Position numbers and translations under genes: made by a program. The notes beneath the pieces are model-generated. The model was not told the DNA's origin. It saw nothing but the letters and a program-made list of their open reading frames with translations, and made no database searches. Source: a virus. From it: DNA of 64,000 nucleotides. The stretch is from positions 64,001 to 128,000 of IMG/VR virus record IMGVR_UViG_3300031949_000005, one strand, 5' to 3'. Shown here piece after piece: positions 7,729-56,487 of the stretch (positions within the stretch are counted from its first letter, which is position 1; the number at the start of each line of letters is the position of its first letter).

Positions 7729-8225
7729 TTACTTTCTTACCTTTCAACCTAACAAGATAAAGACATGACACACACACACGACATGGTCGGCACCACCCCT
7801 TTAGGGTCGATTTTTCTAAATAAGGTCCTTCGCACAAACATCCAGACTAGCCCTACGCCCCTAAAAACCCACTTTTCCTCATTTTATAGCTCTTTATGGA
7901 CCCTATAATGATGGTATTTTAGTCCCTTAAAAAGCCTGAAATTTGCCAGAAAAAGGCGTTTTTCACGTCAAATAATAGCTAGAAACGCCAATTTCCCGCA
8001 TTTTCGATGGATCATTCCCTATTATTCGTTCAAAAAGACGATCTGTCTCGCCTAGGGATGATACTTCGCAAGCGAAAACTGGAAAAAATACATATTTTCC
8101 TTCAAGAAATTGAGTTTTTGATATGTCTTTGTAGAGAAAAAGCTTCTTTTCCACTAACTTCCTCCTTTTTCTATTCAGAAACATGGTTTTTGTATACTTT
8201 TCACGACTTTTGTGTATAAGTGAGT

Positions 8226-8789
8226 ATGAAAAAAACATGGGCAAGAGGAAAGGAGTGGTATCGTCGTCAGAGACTTGCGAGTAATCTATGTATGACATAT
8301 GGATGTAAAAACGATAGGGTAATAAATAGACAAACATGCAGAGAATGCCAAAAGAAGAGCAAGAATTATAGGATTAACAGGTCTATTAAACTTACTCAAC
8401 TTGGTCTGTGTACCAGATGTGGTCAAAATAATTATCTTGAAATATATCAAGACAGAAAGACAAAAACCAAGTTATGTGAACTTTGTTATCTCAAGAGAAT
8501 GGCTTCTCAACACCTTGGTGCGGAGAGTTACTACGTAGATTTGTTAAATCTACTTCAAAAACAAAAGTTCAGATGTGCTTATACTGGAGGTGATCTTGTT
8601 TTAGGCTTAAACGCTTCGTTGGATCATATACTTCCGCGAAAGAAATATCCGGATAAAATCAAAGATATTGATAATCTTCAATGGGTTATTCGTGATATAA
8701 ATACGATGAAATCGGGTTTCGAAGAGGAGACGTTCATTAACCTTGTTACAAAGATGTATCTATATTTAACTAAATCCAATAATTCCTAA
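8226..8789 (+). CDS. HNH endonuclease with N-terminal Cys zinc fingers
   Basis: CAYTG...SLDHILP...NLQWVxxxINxMK; opposite strand to neighbours; GTGTATAA motif at 8212. Confidence 0.8.
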   Translation: MKKTWARGKEWYRRQRLASNLCMTYGCKNDRVINRQTCRECQKKSKNYRINRSIKLTQLGLCTRCGQNNYLEIYQDRKTKTKLCELCYLKRMASQHLGAESYYVDLLNLLQKQKFRCAYTGGDLVLGLNASLDHILPRKKYPDKIKDIDNLQWVIRDINTMKSGFEEETFINLVTKMYLYLTKSNNS

Positions 8790-8793
8790 ATCG

Positions 8794-9201
8794 TTATTTA
8801 CATCCCTTCCTAGCTCTAGGATTCCTGTTTTTGGCTCTTGTCGCCTTTTGACGCATCTTGGCCTCTTGTTCTTGTCTCGCCAACCGTTCCTCTCGGCGCA
8901 ATGGGTCGGAATTTATCGTGCCTATACGAATAGACTCATTGGTGGCCAATTTACATACATTTTTGCGCGGACGACATGCAGTTTTTCTTGACTTGATGTT
9001 CTGACCATCCAATCCCTTGGTTATATTGACGAACGGACGCTTGGTGGTGAAACCATAACGGCCATCTCCGGCGACTTTATCTAAATCACCATTAGATGAA
9101 AACCGTCTACCTCCTTTTACTCTTCGAGTCCACTCTAGTCCGAGCCTGTATGTTTTGAGGAATTTTTTATCCTCTTCTGTCTGGGGTATGTTATAGATCA
9201 C
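8794..9201 (-). CDS. basic (Arg/Lys-rich) hypothetical protein
   Basis: GTG start after AGGAG; the longer ORF overlaps tRNA-Ile. Confidence 0.55.
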   Translation of the reverse strand: MIYNIPQTEEDKKFLKTYRLGLEWTRRVKGGRRFSSNGDLDKVAGDGRYGFTTKRPFVNITKGLDGQNIKSRKTACRPRKNVCKLATNESIRIGTINSDPLRREERLARQEQEAKMRQKATRAKNRNPRARKGCK

Positions 9202-9225
9202 TTGGTTTACTCCTGTTAAAAATAT

Positions 9226-9300
9226 TGACCCCACCCGGATTCGAACCGGGAACCTCGATTTTATAAGAATCGCGCTCTAGCCGACTTGAGCTATGGGGCC
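9226..9300 (-). tRNA. tRNA-Ile(TAT)
   Basis: Reverse complement GGCCCCATAGCTCAAGTCGGCTAGAGCG; anticodon arm CGATT-CTTATAA-AATCG; GGTTCGAATCC. Confidence 0.9.
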
Positions 9301-9303
9301 GAC

Positions 9304-9336
9304 TGGACCTCCTGGGAATCGAACCCATAGAGGCCC
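9304..9336 (-). ncRNA. tRNA-Ala-like minihelix (acceptor stem plus T-arm only), or internally deleted tRNA
   Basis: GGGCCTC-TA-TGGG-TTCGATT-CCCAG-GAGGTCC-A: 7-bp acceptor with G3:U70 and A73; D and anticodon arms absent. Confidence 0.6.
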
Positions 9337-9349
9337 ACTTCTTCCACTG

Positions 9350-9991
9350 TTACTGCATTCCAATACCTAGGCCGGACGGTTCATCCCAACGAATATCGCT
9401 TTCGTAGGGACGACGTGATCCACAGACACTGTTGTGATATGCGCCATCACGACTTGGAACAGGATCGTGATAAGACATCCCATCGGGATTTTTCAACGTC
9501 TGCATAATACCCCACCACAGAGCACGCTTTGCGATTTTGTCTCCGGTCCTTATGGCCTGTCGGAGATGCTCATTGTTGAAAATGAGATCGTTGGCACGAG
9601 TCTTAATATCGTACCAGTCGGGTCTAATGATTTGAATATCGACCACAGGCACTGTCGTTGCTCGATAAACAGTCACAACAGACGGATCGTCGAGATAGTC
9701 GTAACTATGATTGCCTATGATGATCCTATCTCCCCGTGATAATTGAGGCGCGATATCCATCTTGAGTTCCATCCGACAGAACTTACAGACTTCCTCGCTA
9801 TAGAGGACGAAGAAGTCATATCTCGTCACGAGAGAGTTCCCACTATCAGAATACGTTTTCGATCCACCAAAGTATCTACTCCCCGTCGGAGTAAATAAGA
9901 ATTTGGGGTGGCTAACGATTCTGTCTAGAATCCCATAAAGAGAATTCTTGATTTCCGGCATGAACGTATCGCTACCATGATAGCTCAACAT
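9350..9991 (-). CDS. putative Pol-beta-superfamily nucleotidyltransferase
   Basis: TGSRYFGG, YDFFV and a later VDIQI aspartate; the first Asp of DxD is not obvious. Confidence 0.5.
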   Translation of the reverse strand: MLSYHGSDTFMPEIKNSLYGILDRIVSHPKFLFTPTGSRYFGGSKTYSDSGNSLVTRYDFFVLYSEEVCKFCRMELKMDIAPQLSRGDRIIIGNHSYDYLDDPSVVTVYRATTVPVVDIQIIRPDWYDIKTRANDLIFNNEHLRQAIRTGDKIAKRALWWGIMQTLKNPDGMSYHDPVPSRDGAYHNSVCGSRRPYESDIRWDEPSGLGIGMQ

Positions 9992-10010
9992 GGTGATCCC
10001 CTTTCCGGCG

Positions 10011-10412
10011 CTATTGCGCCATTGCCTTTTTGATGAAGGAGCACGCAGACATTAAGTCCTCTTCGCCATTAAGAATATTGACGAGGACTTCTCGTTTCCT
10101 AGAGTCGAGTCGGTGTAGAGACACTCCATTAGCCACTTCTTCGATAGCTTCACGGAAGAGTTGGTGTGCGGTTTTTTTCTCCTTTGTCTGGACGAAAGTG
10201 AATTGTCCAGTCTCGTCACGAGAGAGTTCCCACTCCGAAGCAATGGCTTTTACTATCATCGCCACATCCGGTATTGTTAGCCAGACACGATCGAAATTCT
10301 GGGTTATACTTACACCACCACTAGAATTCTTTGGATCGGAACTTACTTCGAAACCATCGGTGAAGTTATAACTTCTAAGACAATACATCACACAATCTCC
10401 TCTAACGGCCAC
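10011..10412 (-). CDS. hypothetical protein
   Basis: 133-aa ORF on the operon strand. Confidence 0.55.
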   Translation of the reverse strand: MAVRGDCVMYCLRSYNFTDGFEVSSDPKNSSGGVSITQNFDRVWLTIPDVAMIVKAIASEWELSRDETGQFTFVQTKEKKTAHQLFREAIEEVANGVSLHRLDSRKREVLVNILNGEEDLMSACSFIKKAMAQ

Positions 10413-10576
10413 CTTTTCAATTGCTTGCCGCGCATCTCCGGGTGTGCTTTCCGTAACTCTCGACGCGCCACATTCCTCGTCTTGGTTTGCGGATTACGAT
10501 GCCCCTTCGGATTGTTCGACTTCTTCGATTTTTTATCTTCCTTCGACGACATTTTCCTCTTCCTTTCGTTCGACTT

Positions 10577-10837
10577 TCATGTTTTCTGACTCTCGTGACT
10601 ATGCAGTGAACACAACCTACAAATCATGCCATTTTCATATTCTGCGTGGTCGAAAGATGGCCAGTGACACAATAGACATGGTAAATTGTCAAATCCCGTT
10701 ATCCCCATCTTGTCGGCACATTGACCACATACAAATCCCGCACTGTCTAGAACCGAATGATCATCGTGAAACCCTGTCTCTTCTTCGCATATGATACACG
10801 AAGGCATTACTACTCCGGTTTCTTCGTTAAGAAACAT
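10577..10837 (-). CDS. Cys-rich (zinc-finger) protein, paralogue of 1058..1384
   Basis: AAGGAG RBS before MFLNEE; four CxxC pairs. Confidence 0.65.
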   Translation of the reverse strand: MFLNEETGVVMPSCIICEEETGFHDDHSVLDSAGFVCGQCADKMGITGFDNLPCLLCHWPSFDHAEYENGMICRLCSLHSHESQKT

Positions 10838-10863
10838 GGTTGTCTCCTTACGTTTGGGGTTAT

Positions 10864-10935
10864 ATCCCATACTAGGATTTGAACCTAGATTCACCGTGTT
10901 GTCACAGTGCGTCTTACCAATTAGACTATATGGGA
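10864..10935 (-). tRNA. tRNA-like RNA with non-canonical anticodon arm (identity undetermined)
   Basis: TCCCATA/TATGGGA acceptor, GTCT-AATTGGTA-AGAC D-arm, CTAGG-TTCAAAT-CCTAG T-arm; anticodon arm CACTG-TGACAACA-CGGTG (8-nt loop, no U33). Confidence 0.75.
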
Positions 10936-10937
10936 TA

Positions 10938-11842
10938 CCAGCGTGAACACGCCAGAAGTGGCCACAATATCGCCGACTAATCCGCTTGTCGATTAGTAAC
11001 GAGATTGGTTCGCGGGCCTTTATAGACTAGAAGCGACGATAGATACGACTACCGCGCTACTATTTATTTGTCTCGTGGTGTCATTTCGGAGTACCATCCT
11101 ATAAGGTAAGCGCTAACTCACTCCCATAGGACGTATCGGTAAACTAAGAATTGCTAGACGGTACGGCGCTATCACCAGACCCGATAAGGTTGCGAGGCTT
11201 ACCAGACCCTTAGTTCCGACGCGCTATGGCCTAGGTTTACGGAGTTACACCGACAACCTATCCCCACCACAATTGCACTTATACTGTAACATATCCGACT
11301 AGACTTGCGTTAGATATGTTCGCGCGACAATTCTTATCAGGATTCTCACCGTATAGTCGCGCCATGTCTGATAAAACCATTTCGGTATGATACGATTGCA
11401 GGATAGTTTATTCCGACAAGCGCTATTCGCCACCGAAGCGCCCTTCGGTATTCTTGCTAAGCGCGCGGACTACCTACATCGTCCCATAACTTGTGTGTTA
11501 TCGGACGTATAAGCGTATACCGTTATATCGGCTAACGCGGGAATTATCGGACGCCTAATTCTCGGACCCTCTTCCCGAACTCCGATAATAATTTCGGGAG
11601 TTAGACCCTGCAAACGAACTAGGTCTTATAACGATGTTTCCCTATCGTTGACGGATTAGCGCGGACTATGCGCTCTCCCATTCTTATACAGCCCGATAAT
11701 AGGCCGTAATTCCGCATAAGACGCAACGCGAACAGCGCGTCTATTTAGTCCGAAGTTATCGGACGCATCGAATATGCGGCGAGGCGCGCACTACCGGACG
11801 AGGAGAATCCGATAATGCGCGATTGCGCCGGATACTCTGGTG
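10938..11842 (-). ncRNA. candidate giant structured ncRNA (~900 nt)
   Basis: No ORF of 60 aa or more within it in six frames; more than 15 helices found by eye, some nested; imperfections are G:U on the minus strand. Confidence 0.65.
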
Positions 11843-12163
11843 TTACTTCTTGCCGAGCTTTGCGAAGCTCGACTTCAATTTTGACGCACCTTGCCGACGG
11901 TTGAGGATAGCGTCAGCGACACCCGCTCCGTTATCGGAGCCGAAGCCTCGATCCGACGGCGGGGTATATCCCGAACCGTTTTCGGACCATTGCTTCAAAC
12001 TCTCAATCACGTCAAGCGCTTCGGCGATTGCATCCTCTCGCTCATCCTCGGCCTTCAGCGCGATTGCATCGACGAGCTTCTTCGTGTCGGAATACCGACC
12101 AGCATCGTCAAGAAATCGTTGCGCATCGAAGGCGACCTTCGGCTCCATCGTACCAGTTGCCAT
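11843..12163 (-). CDS. hypothetical 106-aa protein directly upstream of the candidate ncRNA
   Basis: AGGAG RBS; GC-rich codon use; own promoter. Confidence 0.75.
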   Translation of the reverse strand: MATGTMEPKVAFDAQRFLDDAGRYSDTKKLVDAIALKAEDEREDAIAEALDVIESLKQWSENGSGYTPPSDRGFGSDNGAGVADAILNRRQGASKLKSSFAKLGKK

Positions 12164-12256
12164 AGTAGACTCCTTTAGGAAGCTTCCTATGCGCTACCAG
12201 ACGATAGCACACGCTACCATCCGATAGCGCGTCAAACAAGTTTTTTGCTACATCAT

Positions 12257-12285
12257 ACTATAGCCTCCGGATTGTCAATAGTCAA
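12257..12285 (-). promoter_or_regulatory. sigma70-type early promoter
   Basis: TTGACT-17 nt-TATAGT on the minus strand. Confidence 0.65.
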
Positions 12286-12745
12286 GAGACTTGAACAAAT
12301 TATTTTTAGGTCTTATAATAAGGCACGACATAGAGTGTATATACAATAATAGTCGTATCCTATAATATATCACACTACTCAACAATAATAAGGATTTTAT
12401 TGACCGCGACCGATAAAAGCGCCCCTCGCGTTATTCCGCTAGTCCTATAATATATCACTTTTCTTGTCATGCTACACCATATTATTAGTATCGTCCTATA
12501 AAACGCTAATCCGATAATATCAAATAATGTCCCCGCGATAAACAGGCTCTTGTGTTATTATAGGATCGGTTCGATAATTGCTCGTAAAATCGCACGCAAA
12601 CATAATGATAATAAGCTAGGTCCGATAATCGCAGTTTTAGTAGTGATTGTAACAATATAGAGAGTTTTTGTCCGATAAAACAATCGGATTTTACCACATT
12701 CCGATAATAAAAAGAAGTGTTAGCGCTAAGGTTTTAAGCCAAAAT

Positions 12746-13990
12746 CTAATCTCGGATACCATGTCCGATAATCCTTCCATTGTATCCCTGTGCTCTTATT
12801 CGTCCGATAAGGCCAAAGAGCGCGTTATCCTTCCCGTCCGCAATATAGGACATACCTTCCAGCGCGTTATCATCGTCAAGGTACACCCGCGCTGTATAGG
12901 TGCCTTCGCCGATATGATCGGTTGCAACATAGAGCATTATAAGACCCTCCTATCCGTCGATGGTTATCGGATTCTTCCGTCCGTCAAGAGCGCGTCTATC
13001 CGCTTCGTCCGGTCCCTTGCGCAATTGCCCATACCATCCGGTCCGTGCTAGATTGTCCGATAATCTCTTCGGCGCTTCGTCCGGATTGAACGTCATTGCG
13101 CACGTACCATAATACTTCGAATGGAACGGTCCGGAAACAAACGCCAGCGTCAGATAACCGATTTGCTCGGTCTGGTAATTGAGAGTTTTCCGGCGCTTGA
13201 TTCTGGCAAGTATGGCTTCGCCGAAGGCAATTCGATACTTTGCACGTCTGATAATTGCTCCCACGATTCTTCTCCTTTATCGGACCAACTGAAGTTTGTT
13301 CCAATAATCCATTATTTCCGCTGCGCGGCTCCATCCTACAGGAAGCATAAGGTTATCGGTCGCGTGGGGTTCCCTGGTTTCGATAACCCTTCCGCCCCAT
13401 AAACTCGTGATATATCGGACCGCCGGTTCAACGTACGTTATCGGTACAATCATGTACTGGTTGCGCCTAGGCCCACGTCCTAGGCCGTCCCTATACGTAA
13501 TGAGAACCCGTTGTATGTACCCCATTGTACGCTCCTCGCTACCGATTGTCAAGCGGGAAAAACCGAACCTGTACCCCATCCGGTCCTATATCGTACGGAC
13601 CAATACAATGTCCAATAACTCCTTGAACGTCCGTATCCTCGACCCATTGTCCGTCCGATAAAAGAACCCGGTCACGTTCCGATAAGAAACCGTTGGCTAG
13701 ACCGATAATTGTTTCGGTGTGGTTATCGACACTAACGATGTCTCCAATACAGACTATCATTACCGGACTCCTTGCAGTGTGCTAACCCGTAGATTACCGG
13801 ACACACTGTCATATCCGATAACCTTGCTCGTACCGTCCGATAACGTAACCAGCACAGGCCCATCATCGTCCGATAGCGTATAAGCCGCCGTACGTCCGCT
13901 TGCCAGTGCCACCTCGTCCGATAACCCCTCGTAGAAGCTCGGTCCGATATTCTCCGAACCGGGGATATACAGTCTAGTTGTACCGAACAT
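12746..13990 (-). CDS. operon of five small early proteins (12746..12937, 12950..13264, 13277..~13525, 13539..13760, 13760..13990)
   Basis: Co-oriented ORFs with GGAGG/AGGAG RBS; GC-rich. Confidence 0.65.
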
Positions 13991-14002
13991 TGAAGCCCTC
14001 CT

Positions 14003-14074
14003 TTACGTTAACTCCCACCATACCTTGGCCAGTCCCATAACCACCATCGCCACGGCTAGACCGATAAGTGTCAT
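14003..14074 (-). CDS. 23-aa hydrophobic micro-protein MTLIGLAVAMVVMGLAKVWWELT
   Basis: Hand-translated; starts 1 nt after the previous stop; below the ORF-track cutoff. Confidence 0.45.
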   Translation of the reverse strand: MTLIGLAVAMVVMGLAKVWWELT

Positions 14075-14075
14075 A

Positions 14076-14216
14076 TTATCGGCCTTCACAATCGTTGTTA
14101 TCGGAACACAAGAAGTAACCGCCCGATGGTCCGAGAACACCAACACCCTCTTCCGTCAGATAAAACTTGCACCCGCCGCACGCCAGCAACAAAAGTCCCA
14201 TAAGTAAACGTTTCAT
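14076..14216 (-). CDS. 46-aa putative lipoprotein MKRLLMGLLLLACGGC...
   Basis: Hand-translated; AGGAGG RBS; signal peptide with lipobox-like Cys. Confidence 0.6.
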   Translation of the reverse strand: MKRLLMGLLLLACGGCKFYLTEEGVGVLGPSGGYFLCSDNNDCEGR

Positions 14217-14231
14217 CGTACCCTCCTTTTG

Positions 14232-14357
14232 TTATCGTCCGTACCGATTCGTTGCCAATCCGAAGGCATTGAAAACCAGTCCGATAGTTGCTAGTGCCAT
14301 AACCATCGCCCCGATGTAAAGCCCGTTGTTCGTTAGTAGGTTAATGATCGTTTCCAT
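14232..14357 (-). CDS. 41-aa single-pass membrane protein METIINLLTNNGLYIGAMVM...
   Basis: Hand-translated; first ORF after the 14407-14435 promoter. Confidence 0.55.
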   Translation of the reverse strand: METIINLLTNNGLYIGAMVMALATIGLVFNAFGLATNRYGR

Positions 14358-14406
14358 TGTCCTGTCCCTTCGTTATAAGCCCTTGTTATCCCCTTACCAC
14401 GAGTAT

Positions 14407-14435
14407 ATTTTAGCATACCGATCGGCAAGAAGCAA
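14407..14435 (-). promoter_or_regulatory. sigma70-type early promoter with extended -10
   Basis: TTGCTT-17 nt-TAAAAT with TGn before the -10. Confidence 0.6.
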
Positions 14436-14882
14436 GCCCGAAGGAAAGAATCTTTTTTTAGTCCGATAAGTTAAGATAGGTAGGATAGTCTGATAAATAG
14501 AAGATAGATATATAGTCCTATAGCTTAGTCAAGCTAGGTTCCGATAAGTATAGTATGATGATAGATAGGTTATAGGAGCTTAGCATAGATAGTCTGATAA
14601 TTGGAGGTCCGATAAGGGGAGTGGGTATTTTATGTTATCGGAGCAAGGCGGAAGGAACGTCCGAAAACGCGGGGGCCTGCATTCGCACCAAGACCCCAAA
14701 ACCCATCCATACTATAAAATCGGATCACTTGTTTTTATCTAAAGCTCCATGGCCTCATATCACAAGAAAATTTTAAAGAACATCTTGGCTGTTGCTATAT
14801 TGGTATGAGGTTTAGCGGTCGGCGCTCTTTCCAGGGATATCACGACTAATACTCGTGGTATTCCAATTGTCTTGGGGAAAAT

Positions 14883-16111
14883 ATGTCAGCAATCATGCCT
14901 ATATTGGTTTCGTTAACAGTATCAATAACTGTCTTAATGACATATTATTATTATTTGAAAGTATTATATTCCAAAATTGATATAAGACATAAATTATCAG
15001 ATTCTTTTTTCAAATATTGGTCAATAGACAAATTTGCAAAAGATATTGTTAGATTAAAACGATTTAAAGATTTAAGAAATTATATAGAAGATAATTACAA
15101 GTGGGAAATTTGTCACTTTCAGAAAATGAATGACGATCTTGAACATATATTTTATATTAAAAAGAATACGGTATTATCGTGTCCTTTCCCTATCAAACCT
15201 GATAATTATAGCAATATGCAATTATCTTTATTTATAGCCCATATATTAATCGAAGAGAATTTAATTTTTACTGAATTCTATCAAAATTTCGTTGGTTATT
15301 TAAACAGGAGAAAACATTGAAGCAAATAGAAAAGAAAAAACGAGTCTTTAAAACCATTACGAAAGAAGATGATAGACTTTACGCCAAAAATGAACTGATT
15401 TGCCCAGAATTATTGGACGAACTCCACGATACGGTCGAGGAACTTAACTTTCTCTGTCGTGCTAATACTCCTGTAAAAGATAAAGGATACAGAATAGATA
15501 AAAAACAAAAGAACCAATTGTGTAAAACAATATCCTCAACTTTAAAGGAGATTTTTGAACTATGAGTAATTATTTAATAGAAGGTATTATCGGAACATTA
15601 ATGGGAGAATACGGAATTGTTAAAGTTCTAGAAATAGTTGATGAAAAATCATATCATCATATAATACACAAGGGTATTAAAAATACAATATTAGAATTTA
15701 ATACGTATAACAAAAATTTACCAAAACTAGATCATACATCCTGTTCATGCCCTGGTTGTACTGGTCGTGGATAAAATCATGATAACTTATACGAGAGAAA
15801 AATTTTGTCGTGTATGTTCTCCTATTTTAGAAGATTTTGGTCAAGGTATAAAAATATCTTGTCAGGCTACTTTAAATAAAAAATATTGTGATTTTAATAT
15901 AAGTGATTGTTATGTATTTTATAAAGATATAGTAGAATATTACAAAAAACTAAAATCCTTTTACACGAGAATAGGAGACATGGATTATGTCAATAAATTA
16001 CCAGATGTAGAAAAAATTATAAAACGTGTCTGTTGTTTTTATCAGCCGACAAATGCTACTAATAAAGAAATATATGATGATGTTGTAGTGAATATAGAAT
16101 TATATAGTTAA
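14883..16111 (+). CDS. four hypothetical proteins (14883..15320, 15317..15565, 15562..15774, 15767..16111)
   Basis: Overlapping start/stop codons; AT-rich. Confidence 0.6.
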
Positions 16112-56106: not shown

Positions 56107-56446
56107 GGGGGCGAAAGGTATCGACCGGGTAATATGAAAAAAGTATTGCGTACCGAGGTTGCTAGTTGGCCTCGTAAAACAACTGGCAAAAGCCTAAACG
56201 GCAATCGTAGTTTTGCTTTAGCTGCTTAGGCAGCACATCAATCAGATGATGTCTATTAGTTTGATTGGTGAAAATAATAGGCTGATCCGATAATAATATC
56301 CTAATATTATTGGATAAGAGAAAATAGGATTGCTGTTTAATAAGCCTGTTGATTGGCGTGTTAAATTTAAGATAAATAATCAACTATGTACGTAGAAATA
56401 TTTTTGGATATACTTCGGGACGGGAGTTCGATTCTCCCCGCCTCCA
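56107..56446 (+). ncRNA. ssrA: tmRNA, tag (A)GNRSFALAA
   Basis: GGGGGCG/CGCCTCCA acceptor with G3:U; PK1 (CGAGG/CCTCG, GCTAGTTG/CAACTGGC); tag ORF 56200-56229; T-loop GTTCGATTC. Confidence 0.93.
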
Positions 56447-56487
56447 TTTTAAATAATTTAAATAAAAATAAATGTTAATGATATATT

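Follow-up and report, generated by a model that had tools for sequence, protein, structure and literature searches.

A putative new family of giant structured phage RNAs encoded directly downstream of a small acidic protein gene

Giant ornate RNAs and the p106 locus

Bacterial and phage RNAs near 1 kb in length with a complex conserved structure are rare, the examples being GOLLD, ROOL, OLE, HEARO and raiA, and their functions are long-standing questions. GOLLD RNAs are encoded by phages and prophages, are often longer than 800 nt, are located by tRNA islands and are sometimes joined to tRNAs; their function is not known. ROOL (Rumen-Originating, Ornate, Large) RNAs are likewise heavily structured phage and prophage RNAs found near tRNA islands, with no known partner or function, and at about 580 nt they are shorter than the RNA described here. 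Two giant ornate RNAs have recently been shown to form RNA-only nanocages. Here we analyse a 64,000-nucleotide stretch of phage DNA (the window), bases 64001-128000 of the IMG/VR record IMGVR_UViG_3300031949_000005 (167,640 bp, complete according to the CheckV estimate), in which a giant RNA of 906 nt lies directly 3' of a gene encoding a 106-aa protein, p106.

A preliminary description of positions 9226-12285 had proposed that eight co-oriented elements, namely a promoter, p106, the giant RNA, an odd tRNA, a zinc-finger protein, a nucleotidyltransferase (NTase), a tRNA minihelix and tRNA-Ile, form a single RNA-centred early module. All eight are present on the minus strand where it had placed them (Table 1), and transcription would run from 12285 to 9226. 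The eight do not hold together as one conserved module: the downstream genes occur only in one relative, L002, and there the order is rearranged. Neighbourhood conservation, which had been suggested as a check, leaves a surviving core of promoter, p106 and RNA, often with a tRNA-like element, while the eight-part linkage fails. What is conserved as a unit is p106 with the giant RNA, preceded in about half of the loci by a sigma70-like promoter and often followed by an aberrant tRNA-like element and tRNA genes; the carriers are a lineage of uncultured phages of approximately 120-180 kb. Our main conclusion, to which we assign a probability of about 80%, is that the giant RNA represents a new family of structured RNAs of about 0.9-1.0 kb that is linked to p106, and that the eight-part module is not conserved.

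The new RNA resembles GOLLD in its placement (906 nt, in a 167.6-kb phage record, beside tRNA genes), which is a likeness of placement and not of membership, and also in possessing one conserved and one variable half. In GOLLD, however, the conserved half is the 3' half, whereas in the new RNA it is the 5' half. The new RNA fails the Rfam GOLLD model even at E ≤ 10, it is always preceded by a dedicated protein gene, and it is known from sequence whereas nanocages are known for GOLLD. It is unrelated to ROOL in sequence and structure and has no match to the Rfam ROOL model. Because it fails the covariance models of both families, the new RNA is a member of neither. By analogy, it is best read as a new family within a known kind, the giant ornate phage RNAs typified by GOLLD and ROOL. 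The tRNA cluster of phage T4 is polycistronic, and its tRNAs and the stable species 1 and 2 RNAs are separated by RNase P and other host enzymes; unlike the giant RNA, these species RNAs are only about 120-140 nt long and have no associated protein gene. The OLE ribonucleoprotein, so far as the available accounts describe it, combines a large ornate RNA with small dedicated proteins encoded alongside, and is a precedent for a p106-RNA particle, in which p106 binding is our conjecture. OLE, however, is an RNA of Bacillota with membrane proteins as its associates; it is not known to occur in a tRNA context, and its sequence is unrelated to the new RNA.

Searching Rfam 15 with window positions 8500-15500 at E ≤ 10 returned only tRNAs, apart from a single sub-threshold match to the strand opposite tRNA-Ile (24.8 bits, E 0.1) that we attribute to chance. 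Nothing relevant was detected at E ≤ 1 in nine relatives, nor at the gathering score in eight more. The giant RNA family is very probably absent from Rfam; group I or II introns, RNase P RNA, tmRNA, riboswitches and other Rfam families were rejected as identities for the giant RNA because there was no Rfam match. A literature search found no description of a p106-linked giant RNA of this kind.

Distribution, folding and transcript layout of the giant RNA

Relatives were sought by several routes, and all alignments are sequence-based. L002, a 7.8-kb ENA contig syntenic with the window, was the sole match of a protein search with the 213-aa open reading frame (ORF) that lies downstream of the giant RNA. 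Ten loci from JGI metagenomes were reached through an alignment of p106 homologues, and 12 loci on IMG/VR contigs of 40-181 kb through a deeper p106 alignment, the homologous loci corresponding to about 17 distinct metagenomic phage contigs. Exact 22-24-mer scans and single-sequence protein scans of viral contigs gave no matches, and a gapped DNA pattern matched only one viral contig, which was known before; its eight matches in bacterial genome contigs have no profile match and were dismissed as chance. The p106 profile has no match in bacterial genomes, and among GenBank phages there is no relative by DNA and none by the major head protein.

A giant-RNA homologue is found directly 3' of the p106 stop codon in all seven metagenome loci with sufficient 3' sequence (83 nt only in L005) and, by profile search, in 10 of the 12 IMG/VR loci. 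In the two loci missed by the profile, L027 and L031, the position 3' of p106 folds in RNAalifold at -192.5 kcal/mol in the sense direction versus -125.8 kcal/mol in the antisense. The gap between the p106 stop codon and the RNA is 3-30 nt in every locus. A subfamily A (window, L002, L006, L008, L009, L011 and L014) can be distinguished from subfamilies B (L010, L012, L029, L032, L033, L035 and probably L030), C (L026 and L028) and D (L027 and L031). A 5' domain, at about 11450-11838 in the window, is common to the subfamilies, and the 3' half is more variable. The best-supported helices are 11837-11826/11781-11770, 11764-11759/11753-11748, 11708-11702/11694-11687 and the long-range 11649-11646/11537-11534.

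The sense strand of the giant RNA folds at -338 kcal/mol (z -6.85) and the antisense strand at -284 kcal/mol (z -3.83). Across 905 nt the giant RNA is 90.8% identical to its L002 homologue, versus about 67% nucleotide identity for the stretch containing promoter, leader and p106; among the neighbouring proteins, identity is 47-70%. The RNAs of window and L002 differ at 4.8% of paired columns versus 22% of unpaired columns, and the changes at paired positions comprise 4 double, 19 wobble and 0 broken. Their joint RNAalifold energy is -310.5 kcal/mol in the sense direction versus -230 kcal/mol in the antisense, and since RNAalifold avoids broken pairs, it is this strand asymmetry that is the informative part of the fold. 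The stretch is beyond chance because it has 47-50% G+C in a genome of about 30% G+C, a fold z of -6.85 and conservation in other phages. It is nearly certain that the large structured RNA of the preliminary description is real, and it follows p106 in every relative found.

Covariation within the subfamilies supports the fold. For the 5' domain of subfamily A (7 sequences), RNAalifold gave 71 pairs, of which 33 are compensatory; the shuffles give 17.7, none of the 500 reaching 33, and sliding the partners by 1-3 columns gives 7-9. Of the cells, 91.9% are paired, versus 78.4% in shuffles. The full-length alignment of subfamily B (6 sequences, about 950 nt) gave 33 helices, some of them long-range, with 227 pairs in total. 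Of these pairs 83 are compensatory; the shuffles give 37.0, again with none of the 500 reaching the observed count, and the slid controls 15-24. Here 92.4% of cells are paired. The sequence pairs L006/L009 and L026/L028 contain 47 and 45 compensatory changes and have a similar strand bias. The G.U share of paired cells is 13.8% in A and 18.8% in B, and A.C cells, which would be G.U on the opposite strand, number just 16 and 18. Because G.U is far above A.C, the structure belongs to an RNA of the p106 sense and not to duplex DNA.

Several points weigh against a new p106-linked family. The RNAalifold structures were scored on their own source alignments, which raises the apparent proportion of paired cells, and they draw on few sequences, although the slid and shuffled controls argue against a pairing artefact. 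The 3' half aligns poorly between subfamilies; even within subfamily A it aligns poorly and yields 25 pairs, and a single 18-sequence alignment of all subfamilies is too gappy and keeps the first helix alone. The relatives were retrieved via p106, so the constant adjacency of RNA and p106 was checked from the p106 side alone. The p106 protein has a net acidic composition, and no RNA-binding fold can be recognised in it. In L006, L012/13 and L028, the first 1 kb or so beyond the RNA's 3' end yielded neither a tRNA nor a tRNA-like element, from which it follows that maturation by RNase P is not universal and that the tRNA association is frequent, not general. Finally, pieces of the giant RNA may be among the 8,495 unnamed candidate motifs of an IMG/VR-wide screen (Fremin et al. 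2023, PMC10690425). The available text of that study describes motifs from the same source, with covariation in phage intergenic regions and with tRNA-like motifs included, and it mentions no RNA of about 0.9 kb tied to a p106-like gene.

The layout of the locus is compatible with one promoter-driven transcript. The promoter TTGACT-17-TATAGT named in the preliminary description is present, and in L002 both hexamers are unchanged while the spacer has diverged. TTGAC(T/C/G)-17-TATAGT or TATAAT is found 86-228 nt 5' of p106 in L002, L005, L006, L010, L012, L028, L029 and L030. These sites are consistent with host sigma70-dependent expression that includes a long structured leader, and the sigma70-like character of the promoter suggests that expression is probably early. 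The arms of the leader hairpins have changed in L002 yet still pair, as judged by eye and left unscored. Between 12257 and 9226 the sole minus-strand terminator-like site is a weak one at 10095-10081, within the 133-aa ORF, and the earlier statement that no terminator separates p106 from the tRNA-like gene was borne out. It is likely that the giant RNA is co-transcribed with p106.

Some features of the upstream region were observed in passing. The two leader hairpins (window 12170-12235, minus strand) resemble one another, their sequences being GCGCUAUCGGAUGGUAGCG and GUGCUAUCGUCUGGUAGCGC, and the leaders of other relatives also contain hairpins. A divergent promoter-like sequence, TTGAAC-17-TATAAT (window 12291-12470, plus strand), stands back to back with the p106 promoter, and the 450-nt gene-poor upstream stretch contains two copies of TCCTATAATATATCAC.

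The wider setting is distinctive in composition: G+C is about 30% in the genome, 42-51% in window 9000-14700 and 47-50% in the giant-RNA stretch. There are 33 copies of the motif CCGATAA (extended consensus GTCCGATAA) on both strands of window 11181-14641, within genes and between them, and they are confined to these 3.5 kb of the 167-kb genome. A CCGATAA field lies 5' of p106 in every relative, with 11-76 copies per locus and without any wider consensus; to judge from this distribution, it looks like a DNA-level protein-binding or modification site. The contigs of L005, L008, L009/L024, L010/L025, L014, L003 and L004, one of them of 166 kb and one of 40 kb, break inside the giant RNA or within 1-1.7 kb past it; microdiversity, repeats or a genome end could explain this. 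Two relatives whose records end in repeats have the locus at an internal position, although such ends may be no more than a product of circular assembly.

The p106 protein, the tRNA-like element and the downstream array

There are more than 17 homologues of p106, with an invariant core NG.GYTP...GFGS(D/E)N, and the window and L002 proteins are 58% identical. The AlphaFold2 (AF2) model is confident and all-helical, with a predicted local distance difference test (pLDDT) score of 87.7. p106 matches no family in Pfam or PHROG; a Foldseek search of the PDB returned no E below 2, the best VIA-align Z was 3.4 with no PDB fold prominent, and Atlas scores were 0.82 or less. Several histone-fold proteins, with Z about 3 and a root-mean-square deviation of 8-10 Å, were not regarded as matches. 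p106 is predicted to be a homodimer: the prediction scored 0.77, against 0.54 for the best control, that mark being reached by 20 of 30 proteins solved as same-chain pairs and by 1 of 23 solved as single chains, and the runs had at least 98% contact agreement and a partner pLDDT of at least 85. All members are net acidic, with an isoelectric point of 4.8-6.1, and have 4-7 Lys/Arg among the last 25 residues. The suggestion that p106 is a ribonucleoprotein partner with a basic C-terminus is thus borne out for the short basic tail and weakened by the acidity of the family. The strict adjacency of the two genes argues for a functional tie between p106 and the RNA, and the acidity argues against a classical RNA-binding protein; that p106 binds the giant RNA directly is a tentative and rather doubtful proposition.

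The tRNA-like element at the 3' end of the giant RNA scores 47.9 bits with the Rfam tRNA model (gathering score 29). ARAGORN had to assign it an 8-nt loop with a 4-base anticodon, acaa. Its minimum-energy fold retains the acceptor stem, D arm and T arm, and the anticodon arm consists of 7 bp closed by a loop of 4 nt. The element lacks a seven-nucleotide anticodon loop with U33 that could present a triplet and is probably non-decoding. Compensatory changes between window and L002 have preserved the acceptor stem and T arm, whereas the L002 element has a wholly different D and anticodon region with a 22-nt insertion and is not called as a tRNA. Aberrant first downstream elements recur in other lineages: in L033/34 a 5-nt anticodon loop about 1 kb past the p106 stop, just after the RNA (L033:11295-11365); in L035 a long hairpin in place of the anticodon arm (L035:12608-12703); in L011 a 93-nt form with an insertion (L011:3917-4009); and in L030 a truncated 65-nt form (L030:12299-12363). 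The idea of non-decoding tRNA mimics is supported by these elements after the RNA; the minihelix, discussed below, is a deletion relic. In the window, five tRNA genes lie beyond the element on the same strand, and most loci that extend 3 kb or more downstream likewise contain normal tRNA genes in this orientation. RNase P needs no more of its substrate than an acceptor stem and a T arm. Since the giant RNA ends exactly where the tRNA-like element begins, release of its 3' end by RNase P is a reasonable supposition, and whether RNase P defines that end in the window phage is, on the arrangement of the sequence, an evenly balanced question.

Table 1. Features of the locus in window coordinates
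Feature	Position	Strand	Basis or remark
Sigma70-like promoter TTGACT-17-TATAGT	12257..12285	-	hexamers match the consensus at 10 of 12 positions
Leader, about 87 nt, two tandem hairpins and AAGGAG ribosome-binding site	12164..12250	-	sequence reading
p106, 106-aa acidic all-helical protein	11843..12163	-	ORF list, homologue alignment, AF2
Giant structured non-coding RNA, 906 nt	10937..11842	-	folding, covariation, homologues
tRNA-like element adjoining the giant RNA 3' end	10863..10936	-	ARAGORN, Rfam tRNA model, fold
87-aa double zinc-ribbon protein	10577..10840	-	four CxxC pairs in translation
54-aa very basic protein	10388..10552	-	81% identity over 42 aa, L002 only
133-aa ORF	10011..10412	-	true start probably ATG at 10388
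p213, 213-aa orphan protein	9350..9991	-	NTase-fold leads
tRNA minihelix, 33 nt	9304..9336	-	7-bp acceptor stem and T arm, G3:U70, A73
tRNA-Ile(UAU), canonical	9226..9300	-	ARAGORN; Rfam tRNA model, 61.5 bits

The genes beyond the tRNA-like element are less widely shared: those for the zinc-ribbon, 54-aa, 213-aa and 146-aa proteins are common to the window and L002 only, and no locus, not even L002, contains a homologue of the 133-aa ORF. The 87-aa zinc-ribbon protein matches DUF4428 and DZR_2 in Pfam below the cut-off and is 70% identical to its only relative, in L002, where the CxxC pairs are presumably kept (not residue-checked). A zinc-ribbon gene occurs in one of the five larger relatives; among four genomes estimated as 96-100% complete it is present in one, about 6 kb away if that genome is circular.

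The 213-aa protein p213, called an NTase in the preliminary description, earns that label weakly: it has no Pfam or PHROG match, and the leads are at the level of fold. It is 47% identical between window and L002, has just 3 detectable relatives among 1.8 billion representative proteins, and is missing from the four related genomes estimated as 96-100% complete. Its relatives contain TGSRYFGG-x5-SDYDFF, which fits the Pol-beta nucleotidyltransferase signature, hG[GS] followed 9-13 residues on by DhD/Eh; the window protein breaks the signature with a 9-residue insertion that parts D49 from Y58-D59. In Foldseek searches with its low-confidence AF2 model (pLDDT 58), nearly all of the best matches were NTase-fold proteins at E 0.02-0.26, among them small alarmone synthetases, GrpB, TUT4, MenT1, TdT and the CCA-adding enzyme, and Atlas structure matches to GrpB, AbiEii, NTP_transf_5 and RelA_SpoT had template modelling (TM) scores of 0.37-0.49. 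On these models p213 is probably a Pol-beta-type NTase-fold protein, possibly inactivated.

At the position of the minihelix L002 has an intact tRNA-Met(CAU), and the two align apart from one internal gap of 40 nt in which the D and anticodon arms are lost; this comparison identifies the minihelix as a deletion relic of a tRNA-Met(CAU) gene. The minihelix folds at -21.3 kcal/mol (z -4.67). It has acquired G3:U70 with A73, where the intact L002 tRNA-Met has G3:C70; in E. coli, G3:U70 and A73 are alanine identity elements. Since its stems still pair and G3:U70 is present, it may still act to some degree as a processing signal. In L002, tRNA-Ile and the 146-aa gene stand in the opposite order to that in the window. 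An HNH/endonuclease VII-like gene (window 8220-8789, plus strand; the L002 copy is 63% identical) is inserted in the minus-strand array of small genes and tRNAs. The HNH insertion, the swap of tRNA-Ile and the 146-aa gene, and the deleted tRNA-Met indicate that the array is recombinationally plastic. Four elements, the zinc-ribbon and NTase-like genes, the minihelix and tRNA-Ile, are best read as cargo that this downstream array carries in a particular lineage, not as parts of a conserved machine. Elsewhere in the window, a full-length tmRNA gene (56107-56449, plus strand; Rfam 163.5 bits) that is not called by ARAGORN is located amid structural-looking genes.

Alternative explanations and a possible role

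The 0.9-kb stretch might instead be a giant structured 3' untranslated region (UTR) and no independent RNA product; it would then serve the p106 mRNA in cis by influencing its stability, its localisation or the control of its translation. Such a 3' UTR would fit a stretch that begins 3-30 nt past the p106 stop in every locus, with no promoter or terminator found between p106 and the RNA and no separate RNA promoter detected. We nevertheless consider it unlikely: the RNA is conserved far above the gene it would serve (90.8% versus about 67% nucleotide identity), it is three times the length of the p106 gene and contains more than 200 conserved pairs, and in several lineages it ends at a tRNA-like processing signal. 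The proposal that all eight elements constitute one RNA-centred machine, with the zinc-ribbon and NTase-like proteins and the minihelix as functional partners, draws on their co-orientation, their tight packing without a strong terminator, an order largely retained in L002, and the presence of tRNA-acting enzymes among the p213 fold leads. It has been largely refuted by unlinked elements in related genomes. The downstream genes are shared with L002 only, p213 is missing from four near-complete relatives while the zinc-ribbon gene is in one of them, p213 has 3 detectable relatives and a split DxD, the minihelix is what a deletion has left of a tRNA gene, the gene order has changed, and nearby there is an inserted HNH endonuclease gene; we regard an eight-part machine as very improbable.

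Conservation of the stretch could in principle be imposed on the DNA, as a replication origin, a packaging site or a field of protein-binding GTCCGATAA motifs, and not on an RNA. The RNA and p106 genes do carry 8 of the 33 CCGATAA copies, at the edge of the conserved 3.5-kb motif field, and the locus is near a divergent-transcription switch with many relatives' contigs breaking nearby. However, the vast excess of G.U over A.C and the strand-asymmetric folding are unexplained by duplex DNA or symmetric cruciforms, compensatory changes keep pairing and not sequence, and the CCGATAA motif itself is not kept at homologous RNA positions, all of which makes a DNA-level element highly improbable. Decayed or unrecognised protein-coding sequence, which the similar G+C of the adjoining small genes would allow, has a negligible probability: neither strand contains a conserved open frame, the longest stop-free runs are at or below shuffle expectation (there is no ORF in the window RNA, and its longest sense run is 56 aa versus about 81 aa in shuffles), and substitutions between window and L002 track base pairs.

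For the p106-linked RNA family that we favour, we propose a likely sequence of events. Host sigma70 RNA polymerase would start at TTGACT-17-TATAGT, a step suggested by the sequence pattern and its conservation. A single transcript would then extend through the leader, p106 and the RNA, as the gap of 3-30 nt and the lack of a terminator suggest. In the window phage, RNase P would cut at the 5' end of the tRNA-like element and so free the 3' end of the RNA. The freed RNA would fold into a stable particle, alone or with dimeric p106, and by analogy it might act during infection as has been proposed for GOLLD and ROOL, which are also found beside phage tRNA islands. A more specific possibility is that the giant RNA, its attached non-decoding tRNA-like handle and dimeric p106 form a phage ribonucleoprotein, maybe a multimeric cage like those of GOLLD or ROOL but with a protein of its own, that is made early and captures or decoys host factors that act on tRNA. 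The targets could be anticodon nucleases, tRNA-sensing defence systems, RNase P, the CCA-adding enzyme or EF-Tu. We think that a decoy ribonucleoprotein of this sort is a long shot.

If it were true, the decoy particle would shield the phage tRNA set and translation, and giant ornate phage RNAs would for the first time have a member whose protein partner is identified and whose target is defined. Another unrelated family with the same habit, that is, residence in large phages by tRNA islands, suggests a general phage strategy. The new family also provides two handles that are absent from the other families, an obligatorily linked small protein gene and a recurrent degenerate tRNA-like element at the 3' end of the RNA, and both make the long-standing question of what giant ornate RNAs do more testable.

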